Positions 5,380 through 40,640 of a stretch of 64,000 bases of DNA are shown piece by piece; position 1 is the first letter of the stretch, and each line of letters starts with the position of its first letter. This stretch comes from Polymyxa betae A26-41 (lineage: Eukaryota > Protista > Endomyxa: Phytomyxea): the NCBI GenBank assembly GCA_003693705.1, contig RBZT01000705.1, forward strand, positions 62,001-126,000, in the 5' to 3' direction. The translations under genes were made by a program, and so were the position numbers. The notes under the pieces were generated by a model. That model was given only the letters and a program-made list of their open reading frames with translations, was not told the origin of the DNA and searched no databases.

Positions 5380-6481
5380 GTGATGTCGTTGTCGATAGAG
5401 CATGTTAAGGGAGAGATCGCCGAGGTCAAGGCAGACCTGACGAAGGCAAAGGCATACCTGAAGTCGGCGATGGACAATGCCCACAAAGAACTGGTTCTTG
5501 CGGCGATGTCGTTGATCACATCGCTCGAACATCGCTTGGCTGGTCTGGAGGCTTGGCTTCTGAAACCCGCCCTCGCCCCAACTGGTACGTTTGCTAATAT
5601 GTTTCACAGAATTTCGCACGCGATTATCGCTTAATGCTCGTCATTTTGATCATTATTTTAAAACAATTATGATAATATTCATTTTTTTCATTGTTATTCG
5701 ATACGAATCGCGTTTTGATTATTATTTAATACAAATCCTGCGGTTTAAAACTCATTTACAAGAAGACATTAACATGTTATGCGACGTTATCTCCAAATTG
5801 TGTTGGAATATTGGTCAGATTCCAGACGTAAAGAAAGCGAACGATGCCAAGTTCCATCCCAAGACTCGCCCGGCGTCATCTTCATCTTGGACTTCCGCTG
5901 ATCAGAGCAACTTCGTCCGCGCTGTATGCGATTATTACGGCGCTGAACACAACTTTTGCTTTGTCGCCGGTCACGTCGATCCTACCAGAATCACGGGACG
6001 GAATTCCATCGTGGCAGCTCACATCTGGGATTTCCGATGCCGAAGTGCTCTGCCAGTTTTCGGCTTGGCAAAAGATGATGTTTGGAATCCTAAAAACGGG
6101 TTACGTGTTTGCAAGCCGATTAAGAAAGCGTTTGACGCTGGACGGGTCGTTCTAATCTACAATCCCTTTAACAGAAAAATCAACATGCACGTGTTGGACC
6201 CCCAGCTGAAAAATCAGTTGGCCTTACCGTCAGACAAAACGTTCGACGATCTCGACGGCGCGGTCGTAACTTTTCCCAACGGCAATAAGCCATATGTTCG
6301 CCTGATTGCTTATTTGGCTGCCGACGGGATCCGAATGGCATTGGAGAAGAATTGGGTGAAGGCGGGAGATTATGAAGCGTACAGGCAATGGTACGACCTC
6401 GAATTATCCAGTATCGGGAAGGACGAACTGGCCAAGATTGAAAGCAACATTTTTTCTGACATTGATGCCTTTGATGTCTAA
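5380..6481 (+). CDS. helical header plus HNH_2-type endonuclease, Crinkler/CR-effector-like
   Basis: Exon 1 coiled-coil 5380-5584; AT-rich intron 5585 to about 5762; exon 2 with CFVAG...VAAHIW...VWNPKNGLRVCKPIKKAFDAG. Confidence 0.7.
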
Positions 6482-32467: not shown

Positions 32468-32830
32468 GGAAGACATTGATCAAATGATTGCGCGAATACC
32501 GCCGATCTGTCTCTCTCCAGAACTTGACGTCTGGGCTCAGACAGCGGCCGATACAGACCCCAAATCGGCCCCAAGACCCCACCAGCAACCATATCCAACT
32601 GAAGGGATCCCTCAGATCCCGTTCAGATGCGGTTGGCTTCAGCGATCGGGGGCCGGTATGACTCGGCCGATCCTTTTCGCAACTCTCTGGAATGATGTTG
32701 GGCATTGCTGGGCTCGATACGTTAACTGAACACCTCATTGCAATGTGGATGTCGAATGGTTGATCGGGCATGGAAGGGAATAGAAACCCTAATCACTGCC
32801 TGCCGGTCTTTCACCAAATTGATTGATGAT

Positions 32831-33425
32831 TGTAATGTTACTTTCTCAATTAAACTCTTCCCTCCTTATGATGTAATGTTACCTTCCTAATAATCCCTTC
32901 CATCGTAAATAATGTAATGCTAATCCGGCCATAGAGTGCATTCTGTTATTATGGTAGACGAGCTACCGGTAAGATCGCCGAAATCGTCATGTTTCGCCTG
33001 CTGGAGTGCAAACAGGACCAGAACCAGCTAAGAGTTGTACCGCTGTTCTTGCAGATTATCAAAGCAAACGATGGCAGAAAGAAGGCAGATCCCGCGGCTA
33101 CGAATCCGACGAATGGGTTGGTTAGGGTTTCAAATTTGAAACATACGCTATTTGAACGTGTATCGCCTGGACCTTGTCTACAGAAATGATTATCCTCAAG
33201 CGCTTCTATTATGAGGGTAGAGTGTATTAAAAAAGTAACATTACAGCATTAGGAAAGAAGGGTTTACAGTATTAAGAAAGTAACATTGTCCTATGGAGGG
33301 AAGCGTCTATTAAGAACGTAACATTACATCATAAGGAGGGAAGAATTTAAGAACGTAACATTATATCATAAGGAGGGAAGAATTTGTTAAGAACGTAACA
33401 TTATATCATAAGAAGGGAAGGGTTT
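32831..33425. repeat. bipartite inverted array of about 37-45 bp units (foldback/MITE-like or regulatory array)
   Basis: Unit TTAAGAACGTAACATTACATCATAAGGAGGGAAG: 5 direct copies at 33226-33425 and about 3 reverse copies at 32831-32921. Confidence 0.8.
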
Positions 33426-33507
33426 ACATACATGAGAGGTGCATATTGCGTATGTTATAGAGAGATGTGGTATCCCTCTGACCATTGATTATCATTCAGG
33501 TTCAGGA

Positions 33508-33858
33508 ATGCATCCGATCAGCTTCGCTGACCCAGACCGACATCCGCAATGGTTGTTGCCACTATGTCCTGTGTATTGAGATACTGACCATGTCCTGCAC
33601 AGCGCTGATCTGATTCGTGGTCTGGCGCGATGCCATGATGAACGCTCGGTGGCCAAGTTCTTCGGCGCCTGTAATGGTATCAAATCATTACTAGATCAAT
33701 GTGTTAAGAAAGAGGTCTTGTTACTATCTGCGGATCCATTTACCGGTCTCAGATTTATTCATTAGAAATTACCAAAACGGCAGAAGAATCTCGAGGAAGC
33801 ACGACGCTTGCGGGCGAAATGGGCTGAAACCAGAAAAACCCATGACGAGATAAGATAG
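33508..33858 (+). CDS. CMC2: COX assembly protein CMC2 (twin CX9C), 3 exons, absent from the ORF track
   Basis: Exons 33508-33551, 33603-33713 and 33766-33858 give MHPISFADPDRHPQCADLIRGLARCHDERSVAKFFGACNGIKSLLDQCVKKEKLPKRQKNLEEARR..*. Confidence 0.9.
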
Positions 33859-34005
33859 TCGATATTGAATCCAGATCTGTCTCTACTAAAGTATTCGTCC
33901 TTTGACTCTTCTTGGACACCAGCTTCGTAAACCCTAATACCCTAGCCAATCTTTGCCTACCTCGTCCAATACAAAGGTACGATGAATTCGTTTTTTTTGT
34001 ATGTT

Positions 34006-34557
34006 TTAGGATCCCAGGCTCACATGAATGAGCTGTTGAGCGCGCAAACCTCTGCGGATGGTAGTCCGCGAGCGCCCCCGGAACTGTGACTGATCCATGG
34101 CTTCGTGATGAATTGCAATGCCGACTGGGCCGGTATTTCTGCCCGCAATCCACAAAAGCCCTGGAATAAACATTCCAGGGCTAACCCCGCGACCCTCTCT
34201 TCGATATAGGCGTCGCGTGTTGGATTGTAGCCGGGCAGAAACTCCCGCAGACGCTGGCGTAGGGTCGCCAGTTCTTGGGCTTTTTTCTTTCGACAATGCC
34301 GGAAGAAGAGGCTCCAGGCTGTCGTTGTGTTCCTTGGCCGATTTGAGCTGTTTCGACAGCCTGGCGACTTTTTTAGAAGCCTTCCAGACGAGACCTGCCT
34401 CGTGAATAGCCCATAACTTGCTCGTCGCCACTGCGCTTTTGGATAACAAAACCTATAAAAATTCGTTTTTAGGGCTAGGGTTTATAACTCGGGATGCCTT
34501 CTTGTGTTGCGCTGTCCGTGGGTGCGTCAGGAGCCAGCGTCGTAGTGTGGGCGCCAT
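34006..34557 (-). CDS. putative partner ORF divergent from rep (spliced, possibly frameshifted)
   Basis: ATG 34557 (MAPTLRRWLLTHPRTAQHKKASR) joins in frame over a 36-nt GT-AG intron (34453-34488) to the 147-aa ORF; a second minus frame is also open to 34020. Confidence 0.4.
34466..34487 (+). promoter_or_regulatory. telo-box plus TATAA upstream of rep
   Basis: TTTTTAGGGCTAGGGTTTATAA ending 80 nt before ATG 34567. Confidence 0.4.
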
Positions 34558-34712
34558 TTTTAAACAATGGTTTCAATGTTTATTGACGATGAGGCGGATG
34601 CTGTCGACGTTGGCGAAGGTGTTGACGGTGAAGAAGAAGTTGTTGACGGTGAAGAAGAAGTCGATTTGGCAAAGAGGACTCGTTCGATGGTTTTCACGCT
34701 CCATGTGAACCA
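34515..34712 (+). repeat. left arm of 198-bp inverted repeat (rep leader plus first 146 nt of CDS)
   Basis: Reverse complement of 35714-35911 with one mismatch and no indel. Confidence 0.97.
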
Positions 34713-35866
34713 GGAACTGTTTTTTGCTGGAGGTTTCGCTCGGCTGCGCTCCGGTTGCCGGTGTTCCGGATCCTGAGCTGTTGGTCCAGGCGTTGCCTCA
34801 CAAATACCTGGTGTATGGTCGTGAAGTATGTCCGACGACGGGTTCGTTCCATCTACAGGGTTACGTGCAATTTCGTAACTCGATGTCGTTCCGCTCTATC
34901 CACGCCAAGCTCGCTCCGTACAAAGCATGGTTGCGCTGTGCGTACGGCACCGCTGCTTCCAATCGTCTTTACTGTTCGAAGGGTGGCGATTTCTTCGAGA
35001 GCGGACACTTTCCCAAAAACGAGAACGGATGCCGGTGGGAGAATGCTCTTGAACTCGCTCGCATGGGCAAGATCGACGACGTGGACGCTCAGACTCTGGT
35101 TCCATATGTGCGGTCCTTGGAGCGTCTTGAGGAACGACACATGTTTAATCAGGGCCTTCCGATTCTTGCTGAGTGTCGTAACGTCTGGGTGTGCGGTCCC
35201 ACACGTTGTGGGAAATCGTCTATTCTCACGCGGCTGTTCCGTTCGTGCGATGTTTACAGCAAGATTCAGAACAAAAACTGGTGCAACTACCGTCGTCAAC
35301 CGGTCGTATTAATCGACGATGTCGATTCGGATGGTTTCGGTCGTTGGGCGCTGTCGCATCTCAAGATCTGGACGGATTATAAACCATTTCCCGCTGAGCG
35401 TAAGTATGGTAATGTAAACATTCGGCCATATCATTTTATCATAACGTCGAACGAGACGCCGGAATCCGTCTTCGGTAATTCCGCTCCCGCCCATCGTGAC
35501 GCGGTCCTCAGTCGTTTCAAAGTCATTAACCTGTTCGACTGCTGTGGGAATGCGGCATTTTGCCGTTGTGCGACTCATCATCCCGCATTGTATCCCGAGG
35601 AGTCGTTGGTGCGTTTTATCAAAGAAACTGTCGCATGGTTTGCGTACGACGAGAAGAATCGAATTAATGTCCACTATCCCCCGGATGATCCGTTCTTTCG
35701 TGTCGAAGAGGATTGGTTCACATGGAGCGTGAAAACCATCGAACGAGTCCTCTTTGCCAAATCGACTTCTCCTTCACCGTCAACAACTTCTTCTTCACCG
35801 TCAACACCTTCGCCAACGTCGACAGCATCCGCCTCATCGTCAATAAACATTGAAACCATTGTTTAA
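34567..35866 (+). CDS. rep: CRESS-DNA virus-type Rep (HUH endonuclease plus SF3 helicase); motif I is +1 out of frame with the rest
   Basis: Motif I VFTLH (frame of 34567), motif II FHLQG, motif III YCSK, Walker A GPTRCGKS, Walker B VLIDDV, motif C IITSN, Arg finger AVLSRF. Confidence 0.93.
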
Positions 35867-35911
35867 AAATGGCGCCCACACTACGACGCTGGCTCCTGAC
35901 GCACCCACGGA
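35714..35911 (-). repeat. right arm of 198-bp inverted repeat (second copy of the rep 5' end)
   Basis: Minus strand re-encodes MVSMFIDDEA...VFTLHVNQ from 35859. Confidence 0.97.
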
Positions 35912-35942
35912 AAGCGCCAAAAGTGGGTTGCGCGGGGGTCGC

Positions 35943-35964
35943 GCACCCACTAATACTAGGGCGC
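35943..35964 (-). other. putative rolling-circle origin stem-loop with nonanucleotide TAGTATTAG
   Basis: Minus strand GCGCCC-TAGTATTAGT-GGGTGC (6-bp stem with one G.T pair); nonamer 35950-35958 matches TAGTATTAC at 8 of 9 positions. Confidence 0.75.
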
Positions 35965-36609
35965 TGTCATATAAAATAGGGTTGCAGGAGTCCAGGCTAT
36001 GATGGACTCCGGTTGCGTGCGCCTTTCGGCCATCGCCTGAGAGCATGTGGTTGTGCAGCTTCGCACATTCCCGGCCTTCACGATCGGGAGAGAAAGCGAA
36101 GAGAGAGTGAGAAGGTTACGTCTACGGGACCGTGGTCGAATTGTCGCTCAATTTCCTCTTTTGTTTATTTTTGTAAATCAATATTAATAACATTTACTGA
36201 TGGCTATGCTCTTAGAAAGAAAGCAGTGGGTCTAGTCATAACGCTTTACCGAAATGTTCTCGATTCGCTATCTTGTCCTGTCCCTGAAATCTTAGATCAG
36301 ATGTCACATGCTGTGGTTGCGTACTGTACGGTATGTAGAATCAATGATCTGTGATAATAGTTGCCGTTTTATTGCGATTTTCTGATGCTACGCTGTGCCT
36401 AAACTCATCAAATGCGCTCTCGTGATCAATATCAGCCATCCTGGTGACCGAGATTTCACTTTATCCACCCGTCAACGTTTTGACAAAAAAAAACATTTCA
36501 TAAATTATTCGCAGCTACAGCATGGCGGAATTTTTCTTTCGCCCAGAATCTGAACAGATTTCTGCATAGTAATAACCTATTTACACAATATCATGGAGAT
36601 AATCGTTAA

Positions 36610-39385
36610 CTATATTAATGTTGGTAGATTATTAGTTGATCTTGATCTAATAATGATCTTCTGTAATGCATTTGTTAATCTCTGTCCAGCCTTCACAACC
36701 GACATCGATTTCATGACGAACGGCAACATTCCAGATGAACAGCGCCGATATCTTCCGGGGTCTTTCAGGACCTGGGCCTGGGCCAGCTCGAACTCCAGCA
36801 CGCGGCTCGGACGGCGTGCTGGCCCGGCCGCGACAGCGGGCGGCTTCGCAAACAGCGACCTCGTCGTTGGTTTCGGCGCCGTGCGCTCGCCACTGGGCGG
36901 TAGTTCGGTCATGAACACGGAGCAGCGGTGCAGGACGTCGTCGGCGATCCGATCCAGGTCGTTCTCGACGGCGACTGCGTCGATCTGCAGATTCCATTCC
37001 GTGGCGGACGCCGACCGACGACGACGCTGTAGTCGCTGCCGCCCTGATAGACCATCATCGAATGGGGCCAGCATGGGATCCCCCAACACCCCCACGGTCG
37101 TACCATCCGTTACCGATACGAGCGTGATACTGGTGCTGTGGTACTGGCCCACGGCCAGGCACCGGATCGGTGCCAGATACCGCAGGACCCGGACGGCGTC
37201 GTTGGCGACGCGGAACTCGGCGATTCTGTTGATGTTGGAGGCGGCGGCGACGTCCAGCCCGATAACGATACCGTCGACTGTGGCCAGGTACACGTGACCG
37301 TGCGCATCATCGGCTGCGATCGCGGTCAGGGCGTGCTCGCCCACCACCTGCGATGTGGCGCGCAGACGGCATGTGCGCCGCCGCTGGGCCGGCATGACCC
37401 AGGTCTTGACGACGTTGTTCTGATCGATGGAGACCATCAGAGACGTGGTCGTCGTGATCATGGTCACGAACATGACCGCGGCGTCATGGGCGCGCTGGTT
37501 CAGTACGACGCAGGTCGAGGGCCAGATCTGCTGTACGACCAGGCGACCGTCGCTGCGTCCGGCCGCCACCCACGACCCGCAGTCCGAGACGAACACGGTG
37601 ACGGCGTCCTCGAGTCCGTCCACGAACACGGCCTGGTTCAGTACGGCATCGCCGGCCGACGTACTGGTCCGATATCGGCCCGATTTCTCCACCAACACGA
37701 CCTGATCACGGCACGAACTCGCTCGAATCCATGTGGGCGGACATGCTGGCCCCGACGGTATGCTGTACACGTGAGCGTTATGATGGAGACTGTAGGCGGC
37801 CACGTTTCCGTCGGTCTGTACGATGAAGAGGGTTGCGCCCCTGCGATCGAGATCGATAGAGATGACGGATACAGATAGTGGGATACGAGATTGTAACAGA
37901 CCTGTTAGAGATGACCAGATAGTGATCAGATCGGGGTCGTGGTGCCATACAATCACACGTAATAGAGCGCTGCTGTACAGAACGTCGCAGACCGCGCCCA
38001 TCATCATCTCGTCGTCCGCGGCCGAATACTGGACCAGGTCGTCGCCATCGCCGGCCAGCACGAGACGATCGCGAAACGCGACCATGGCCGTCAGCGACCG
38101 GTTCGTTCGGATTCGCTGGACGACGAGTCAGTGGCGGACCCCTGTCACCGACTCGGGGACCAGTATTACCTGAGAACAGACGAGCTGGGTCAGATTCCAT
38201 GTCATGATACATCCGCCTATATCAGCAGTAATCATTGTATCATGTACGAATATGATAGAATGAATCTCTGTATGATGTTCTCTTGTTTGAAATAGACGAA
38301 TATTGGAGTATGGATTATATATACTGATACGTCTATCATATGTACATACTGCCAACATACAATGATTAGGAGTAAATGATATCAATGATACACCATGAGA
38401 GACATCGAACAGGATTGTGGGTGATTCTGTCACCTATAGGGGGGCTCTGAAACCCTAAAACCCTAGCCGACCATCAACCACCGACCTGTATACAATCGCG
38501 CCCATCGCGCCGATATTCCCTCATAATCCATCCACGAATAGTTCGATCAAGAGATCCAGATACGAACAGGTTCGTTGATATACTACAGATCGATGTAACC
38601 TCATCCGTATGCAGAGCGGGAATACTGGCCGACGACCACGTCAACTGCGCCTGGGCATCGTACTCGGCCATGGCCATCGACCCGTCATTGAACCCGGCCA
38701 CGATCGATCCGTTCCTCAGCGCCGCCAGCGCCGTACACGGCGTCGTGATACGGAGCGCCGACGCCGTCGTCGTCGTCGTCTGCAGCGGGATCGCCTCGAT
38801 CGTCGAGCTCGTCGCCGTCACCAACACCGCGATCGATGCGCGCGGCACCGTCATCGTGATCACGTCGTTGACGTCGCCGCGCGCCAGTACGACGTCCGCG
38901 AACTGGCGCATGGTGACGGCATCGTACAGATGCGCCCGATGACGTCCGTCGACGACGGCGATGATGGCGCCGAGGTCGGCGCTGTACAGCAGGCGTTTGG
39001 CGAGACGGCGTCCGGGGACCAGAGCCGCGCCGGGCATGCGGCGATACCGCCGCTCCGTCGGTAGACGGCGTCGCTCCTGATGCTGGTGGCCGTACAGGAC
39101 CAGGGCGTCGAGGAACTCGGCGAAATCGACGACACCGTTGTCGTTGAGGTCCATGGCCCGGAACATGGCCGCCAACGCCACGGCGCCCGGCCGCTCCTGG
39201 AACCAGGCCAGGCCGTGCAGGCGGGCCAGCAGGGCCTGGACGAATTCGGCCTGGGTCACGCCCGGGCCGAGCCGCCCGGCCAGCTGGTCCAATACGTCGC
39301 GGTCGATGGTCAGGACGATCTGCTGGATCAGGTCGTCGACGCCCTGCAGACGCCTGTACAGGCGCGTCCGGGGCGTCGCTGGCAT
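36610..39385 (-). CDS. EF-hand plus WD40-repeat protein (WDR49/EFCAB8-like), multi-exon
   Basis: EF-hand FRAMDLNDNGVVDFAEFL; WD repeats LHTDEVTSI..FVSGSLDRTIRGW and EHHTEIHSI..ITADIGGCIMTWNL. Confidence 0.8.
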
Positions 39386-39551
39386 CGCTAGCCAGGGGGC
39401 GGGTACGCCTTCTTCGCCGCGAATCTCACTGCCGCATTGCAACGATCACAGTCGGGATTTCTGGGGTCAAGGGGCCAGTTCGACGTGTTGTTGGACCGGC
39501 TGACCCTGAACGGTGTTCGGGTACGATCGGCAGTGACGATCGGGACGGTGA

Positions 39552-40225: not shown

Positions 40226-40254
40226 TTGTTTGATAATATAATAACCGCTTTCAC

Positions 40255-40640
40255 GTGTGTTTGGATGGTATTGGTATGGATGACGTTTGTATTGATGACA
40301 TTTGTATTGATGAGATCTGTATGGATGAGATATTTGAGATGACTGGATGAGATGTTGTTTTGTATGGATGAGATTTGTATGGATGAGATGTTGTTTTGTA
40401 TGGATGAGATTTGTATGGATGAGATTTGTATGGATGAAAAATGTTTGTTTTGTAATGATGGCATTTGTTTGTATTGGAAGGATGAGCTATTATTGATGAC
40501 ATTTGTATTGACGAGATTTGTACATATGGATGAGATTTTTCTGTTGTATTGATGGCATTTGTATAGATGAGATTTGTATGGATGAGATGTTTGTAATTTG
40601 AAGGGATGAGCCATCATTTGTATGGAGGACATTTGTATGG
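40255..40640. repeat. degenerate 15-bp minisatellite (ATTTGTATGGATGAG)n
   Basis: Many direct copies, with longer variants such as GATGAGATGTTGTTTTGTATG. Confidence 0.9.

Follow-up and report, generated by a model that had tools for sequence, protein, structure and literature searches.

A Frame-Broken Endogenous CRESS Rep Fragment of Polymyxa betae, Bracketed by Inverted Copies of Its Own 5′ End, Is Probably a Fold-Back Fossil

The window analysed here, a stretch of 64,000 nt from the genome of Polymyxa betae, contains a fold-back Rep fossil that is real, recent and transcribed. Visible at the locus are an inverted repeat, a candidate origin beside one of its arms, a break in the reading frame and the loss of the Rep tail, and the paralogous copies have a plain layout. 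The most probable explanation is a frame-broken endogenous fragment of a CRESS Rep gene, the 5′ end of which is present twice in inverted orientation, likely by a strand switch of a polymerase; the element is probably a weakly transcribed fossil and not a working switch.

Geometry and Content of the Inverted Repeat

A search of the whole window for inverted repeats yielded two arms of 204 nt each (34509-34712 and 35714-35917), which are 99% complementary and enclose 1001 nt; the next-longest inverted pair within the 64,000 nt measures 56 nt. Two mismatches separate the arms, at 34514/35912 and 34655/35771, the latter being an E/G codon, and the perfectly matching stretches are 140 and 57 nt long. 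The original prediction of 198-bp arms with one mismatch around a 1001-bp core corresponds to the part from 34515 to 34712, with 34655/35771 as its single mismatch, and is borne out within the slightly longer repeat.

The left arm (34509-34712, + strand) contains an iteron-like word, a leader of 52 nt, the ATG (34567), an acidic tract and the Rep motif I, FTLH (34693-34704). Leader, ATG, acidic tract and motif I had been predicted for both arms, and all four were found in each. The core (34713-35713, + strand) carries motifs II and III, the SF3 helicase and a Cys-rich C-terminal extension; the native tail is absent. The right arm (35714-35917, - strand) is the inverted copy of the 5′ end. Read on the + strand, it provides 50 non-Rep codons and a stop (35864-35866), and the main frame indeed ends there, as expected from the claim that the gene takes its stop from the antisense of its own leader. 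No target-site duplication was found beside the arms, which, together with paralogous contigs that do not have the arm layout, rules against a TIR transposon or a MITE.

Sequencing Evidence for the Second Arm

Contigs of 8 of the 24 listed sequencing runs were compared with the window. Three runs (X3, X7 and X9, from three studies) are taken as RNA from their spliced GT..AG joints. The contigs were assembled at k = 31, and as the perfect 140-nt repeat is longer than k, they cannot orient the core. For DNA run X1, all four junction contigs (4/4) break off where a true repeat would be expected to end them at this k (34544, 34683, 35743 and 35882), and the 140-nt arm contig has a depth of 26.6, against 11.5-18.2. 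The contigs of X2, a separate DNA study, end at 34544, 34683, 35743 and 35894; an arm-only contig is missing from X2, and the doubled arm depth thus comes from X1 alone. The DNA contigs extend no more than 30 letters into the arms (fewer for the right flank of X2), below the 31-letter bridging rule, and hence represent junction words rather than a spanning molecule; no read or contig across the whole element was found in the runs compared. X1 is likely a second isolate, because it differs from the window by a SNP at 32638 and an 8-nt insertion at 36011. X12, with a small share, contributed three short pieces that match exactly and a fourth that has diverged, none of which serves as evidence on habitat or strain.

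The inverted repeat is real and its second arm genuine. An artefact of assembly or fold-back, the objection foreseen in the original prediction, fails for the existence of this arm, though it still bears on the core orientation. That the arm was produced by assembly or amplification is extremely improbable: although depth is uneven in X2 (202 on one flank vs. 374 on the other), a run that agrees with the window and might be the source of it, the same junctions recur in X1, from a different study and haplotype, and the non-native junction between core end and arm is bridged by a contig in 3/3 RNA-type runs.

Rep Protein, Frame Break and Lost Tail

By its sequence, the core is the Rep of a CRESS-DNA virus (Cressdnaviricota) with an HUH part and an SF3 helicase. 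Both Viral_Rep (PF02407, 36.8 bits) and RNA_helicase (PF00910, 32.8 bits) score over the Pfam cut-off, the best PDB match is a Rep helicase chain (E 1.4e-13) and the top Atlas clusters are Cressdnaviricota (0.97). With motif definitions taken from the available part of PMC6668415, the core contains HLQG (34850), YCSK (34970), Walker A and B, motif C and the arginine finger. A homologue search returned 8077 matches with E values no higher than 0.001; the closest three, full-length relatives with 42-45% identity, have the Cys-rich C-terminal extension in common with the core.

HUH motifs I, II and III are all present, with motif I in a different frame from II and III. The single Rep frame of the original prediction did not hold: the ATG frame (34567-34776, + strand, 69 aa) follows the true Rep N-terminus as far as a break and then runs on to a stop at 34774, while motifs II and III and the helicase are read in a separate frame, 34709-35866. 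The break separates motif I from motif II and falls at a T-run just within the core (34717-34731, + strand), where the third-position bias of the substitutions in the paralogue comparison shifts from the ATG frame (through 34716) to the main frame (from 34732). The contigs of X1 and X2 both carry 34683-34849 with 0 differences and 0 gaps; the break is therefore genomic. As it lies inside the core and travels with it, neither core orientation encodes a whole Rep.

Beyond the last aligned motif, the three closest Reps continue for 55-97 aa, against 4 residues of the core up to the arm border; the right arm has therefore taken the place of the native Rep tail. No further convincing Rep piece was found in the window with 154 Reps (1/155 alignments outside the element, E 0.008). 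Nor did the window ORFs scanned include a capsid family, although a divergent capsid could escape such a scan. A complete CRESS virus genome would have an intact Rep and a capsid gene, and the locus does not appear to be one.

Paralogous Rep Copies

Other Rep copies are known from contigs of the runs compared, not from a whole-genome search. X1 and X2 both contain an origin-plus-leader contig that diverges from the window at 35975, and a paralogous core contig, which shows 61 differences over 524 nt and ends at 35348. Past this point, the core paralogue continues as a telomere-like word; at the same place, the window has a 10-mer common to the origin stem and the core (35346), which is not significant alone (36/500 shuffles). 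X2 adds a leader-to-core contig that crosses the arm border unbroken, with 25 substitutions and 13 gap letters in 322, and loose contig ends indicate a third, more distant Rep copy. The origin-leader, leader-to-core and core contigs would be pieces of one copy. In the contigs of X1 and X2 the layout is plain (origin, leader, Rep), without arms; rep copies with the same arms, proposed as a check, were thus not found among the paralogous contigs.

The substitutions separating these copies fall mostly at third codon positions: 8/8 in the ATG frame to 34716 (p 1.5e-4), a count that leaves out 9 more in the gapped tract 34610-34647, and 9/11 in the main frame from 34724 to 35275 (p 1.4e-3). Both counts come from the listed substitutions, with 59 rows unlisted, and those for the core are drawn from at least two contigs. 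The bias suggests that a virus under selection was captured on separate occasions. Across the arm, the paralogue differs by ~8% plus gaps. The two arms are 1% apart, against about 8-12% for the paralogue, and the duplication is therefore younger than the paralogue split.

Searched against viral contigs, the Rep core, P0128, P0129, P0132, alignment A2 and the orphan ORF described below led to no related virus genome. Among metagenome contigs, a single distant one with a Rep (25%) was found.

Origin Region and Neighbouring Genes

A viral origin had been predicted beside the right arm, and a candidate indeed adjoins it. The region 35918-35975 (- strand) contains the nonanucleotide-like TAGTATTAG (35950-35958), the iteron-like GTGGGTGCG and hairpins, and is common with the paralogous contig up to 35975. 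TAGTATTAG agrees at 8/9 positions with the CRESS nonanucleotide TAGTATTAC. It lies in a hairpin-forming region (z -4.07), the predicted fold of which gives no clean terminal loop around it. The left arm starts at 34509 with GCGCTGTC, an 8-mer equal to the origin stem at 35961; the right arm reads GCGCTTTC in its place. This shared 8-mer is suggestive of a second switch at the stem, a hint that depends on one base. Matches of an origin 16-mer in 28 viral stretches are treated as chance, as none comes with a Rep or longer similarity.

On the left side of the element, the predicted telo-box and TATA words are present at 34454-34486, within a promoter-like, putative region (34454-34490, no strand assigned). 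Overlapping it is an orphan reading frame without start codon (34020-34481, - strand) that points away from the Rep element and could be viral or host. No homologue was found in sequence and domain searches, and the frame may be a second viral gene. It has a diverged paralogue in the same genome: a 1486-nt contig of the DNA runs matches 34136-34240 with 9 differences (2/3 of those listed at third positions), and the same piece is seen in all three RNA-type runs. A displaced Rep tail finds no support for this frame by tblastn with 154 Reps, and an intron as the explanation of its break is not supported either, the RNA contigs being unspliced there.

The element is flanked by host genes: a spliced Cmc1-like (CX9C) gene on the left and WD40/EF-hand genes on the right. 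The former (33508-33860, + strand; PF08583, 32.7 bits) has two introns confirmed by spliced joints and is a possible source of read-through RNA. Further left, an AT-rich unit of ~37-40 nt occurs in at least four tandem copies (32850-32904 and 33206-33426), with one inverted copy 400 nt off; these repeats at 32850-33426 bracket a small transcribed frame, with a spliced joint at 32872-32935 in X3. On the right, the WD40/EF-hand region (36610-39450) has a GC content near 58%, against about 44% over most of the window. A nearby RRM protein has its best named match in Plasmodiophora brassicae (62% identity), far over the next named one, which makes a plasmodiophorid other than P. brassicae the likely host; an array of 15-nt repeats resembling TTGTATGGATGAGAT lies upstream of the RRM gene (40252-40608). 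A short stretch at 36334-36373 is also found on another diverged contig in X7, X9 and X12, which suggests a small dispersed repeat. Elsewhere in the window, the ORF 5669-6481 (+ strand) contains an HNH endonuclease domain (PF13391, 23.6 bits).

Transcription and Core Orientation

The Rep element is transcribed in three studies, probably weakly. In X3 and X7, one contig each (1436 and 565 nt, respectively) leads from the left flank through the arm and on into the core end on the opposite strand, as far as 35430 and 35516. X9 contributes a 152-nt piece, 31 letters of which lie in the core, ending at 35683, and a separate flank piece that ends at 34454; the depth of 34 on the 152-nt piece could stem from a single duplicated fragment and is not used as a level. 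Flank and arm are thereby joined in 2/3 RNA-type runs, and depth over the arm/core start or the arm/origin border is seen in 0/3. In X3, the stretch 34838-35171 has a low depth (about 3) and roughly 29 substitutions that the paralogue of the orphan frame does not explain; it is likely RNA of a paralogous Rep copy. X3 has the window's allele at 32638.

The RNA contigs of two studies thus read the core opposite to the window, and the conflict is the most interesting result of the locus. The simplest reading is a core flipped relative to the window, which would give Rep the position behind its origin that it has in the paralogue. At the flipped join of X3 and X7, however, the 140 letters fit either side. 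The same contig would also arise from two separate transcripts if a weak branch had been pruned, since the perfect 140-nt stretch exceeds k. The sense transcript could end inside the right arm, where an AATAAA is found at 35842. An assembler normally needs linking reads to pass such a repeat without leaving a gap, and so the orientation of the window stays credible. Three solutions are weighed: a mis-oriented window is a serious possibility, a merger of two transcripts in the assembly graph is almost as likely, and the existence of both orientations through passive recombination between the arms is somewhat less so.

The original prediction also included a flip switch, in which inverting the core would rebuild the same gene behind either the left telo-box/TATA or the right viral origin. 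The geometry permits flipping and the flipped join appears in the RNA contigs of two studies, but the same whole gene is not rebuilt: the break within the core leaves a truncated product in both states. Moreover, no recombinase is present among the 27 window ORFs scanned, the paralogous contigs have no such arms, and the RNA contigs fit a true inversion, a mis-oriented assembly or merged transcripts alike. A programmed cassette that serves as a functional switch, with Rep set behind a host promoter or the viral origin in turn, is therefore very unlikely.

A hairpin locus deserves a separate look. Read-through from the flank would cross both arms, fold and be cut to siRNAs against the cognate virus and the Rep paralogues, like Mu killer, a maize locus that silences MuDR and consists of an inverted duplication of the element's 5′ end by a host gene (PMC3440606, as far as the available part of that paper describes it). 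The anatomy agrees, RNA contigs of two studies pass from the left flank into the arm, and the panhandle is very stable in silico (-755 kcal/mol). For P. brassicae, 21-nt siRNAs made with AGOs and a Drosha-like protein, without Dicer or RdRP, are described in the accessible part of PMC13547706, and the source of the siRNA precursors is said there to be unclear. These RNAi data come from another genus, however. The RNA contigs end inside the core and none covers the arm/core start: the hairpin RNA of the original prediction folds in silico but has no contig over both inner junctions (0/3). The paralogue has diverged by ~8% plus gaps in the arm. A killer locus of this kind is unlikely. Its most elaborate form is slightly more doubtful still: a virus-derived killer locus in a reportedly RdRP-less lineage, with dsRNA driven from the flank against a circulating CRESS virus and core flipping between isolates that decides between sense and antisense Rep RNA. 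Near-identical arms in two isolates and transcription in three studies could, nevertheless, also reflect a selected function.

Formation of the Duplication

The layout is best fitted by a fold-back event, as the template-switch origin in the original prediction had it; a viral stage and a stage after integration both fit. Near the end of Rep, a polymerase at work on the viral DNA would have switched to the opposite strand and copied the initial 200 nt in reverse, either in rolling-circle replication or at integration; a second switch may have followed at the origin stem. Either core orientation would take an equal number of switches, and flipping, if any, would proceed by host recombination between the arms. 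No microhomology is visible at the inner junction.

Alternatively, a plain Rep fossil would have integrated first, and a later repair event of the host, a template switch at a replication fork, would have made the inverted duplication and removed the tail. The arms, much younger than the paralogue split, would suit this order of events, as would the paralogue that was independently truncated at 35348, beside the telomere-like word. The left arm, however, ends in the iteron/origin-stem region and starts with the origin-stem 8-mer, which points weakly to the viral origin, and neither of the 2 DNA runs with good coverage of the site showed an allele lacking the duplication. Such a late repair event is an improbable, though not far-fetched, course.

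Comparison with Known Systems

Plasmodiophorids are crop parasites with few known viruses. The number of Rep-like copies (at least three) and the mark of purifying selection on their substitutions speak for the repeated capture of an undescribed CRESS lineage in a plasmodiophorid. Of 17 relatives of the Rep that were looked up, none bore the name of a virus family. Draupnirvirus-like rep EVEs have already been reported in Polymyxa betae (PMC10193959). By their description they resemble the present locus in the integration of an HUH and SF3 Rep in several copies with a degraded frame; the available part of that report gives no inverted duplication. An endogenous CRESS Rep with the inverted-arm layout was not found in the literature searched, which was mostly without subscription papers, in line with the earlier statement that no described element of this layout was known.

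Closest to the proposed fold-back event are the subgenomic or defective DNAs of geminiviruses, in which, according to the accessible part of PMC3187698, the origin is kept together with part of Rep, and inversions and duplications are put down to replication errors. Those are free, trans-replicated circles, whereas the locus here is chromosomal and known from contigs.

The invertible phase-variation cassettes hin and fim likewise have a segment between inverted repeats that meets different promoters when flipped. Their sites are short, in contrast to the long homologous arms of this locus, where no recombinase was found in the 27 ORFs and neither state holds an unbroken gene.

Mu killer shares with the locus an inverted duplicate of an element's own 5′ end beside a host gene, and in both RNA comes in from the flank. 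The source here is a virus and not a DNA transposon, the stem measures 200 nt with a loop of 1 kb, and the locus is known from contigs, not from a hairpin transcript. If no small RNAs are made from it, it is a well-preserved fossil of a defective genome and a warning that this core may be wrongly oriented in the assembly. If they are made, it would be an RdRP-independent source of dsRNA, the source named as unclear for this group in the available part of PMC13547706, and a natural antiviral Mu killer.
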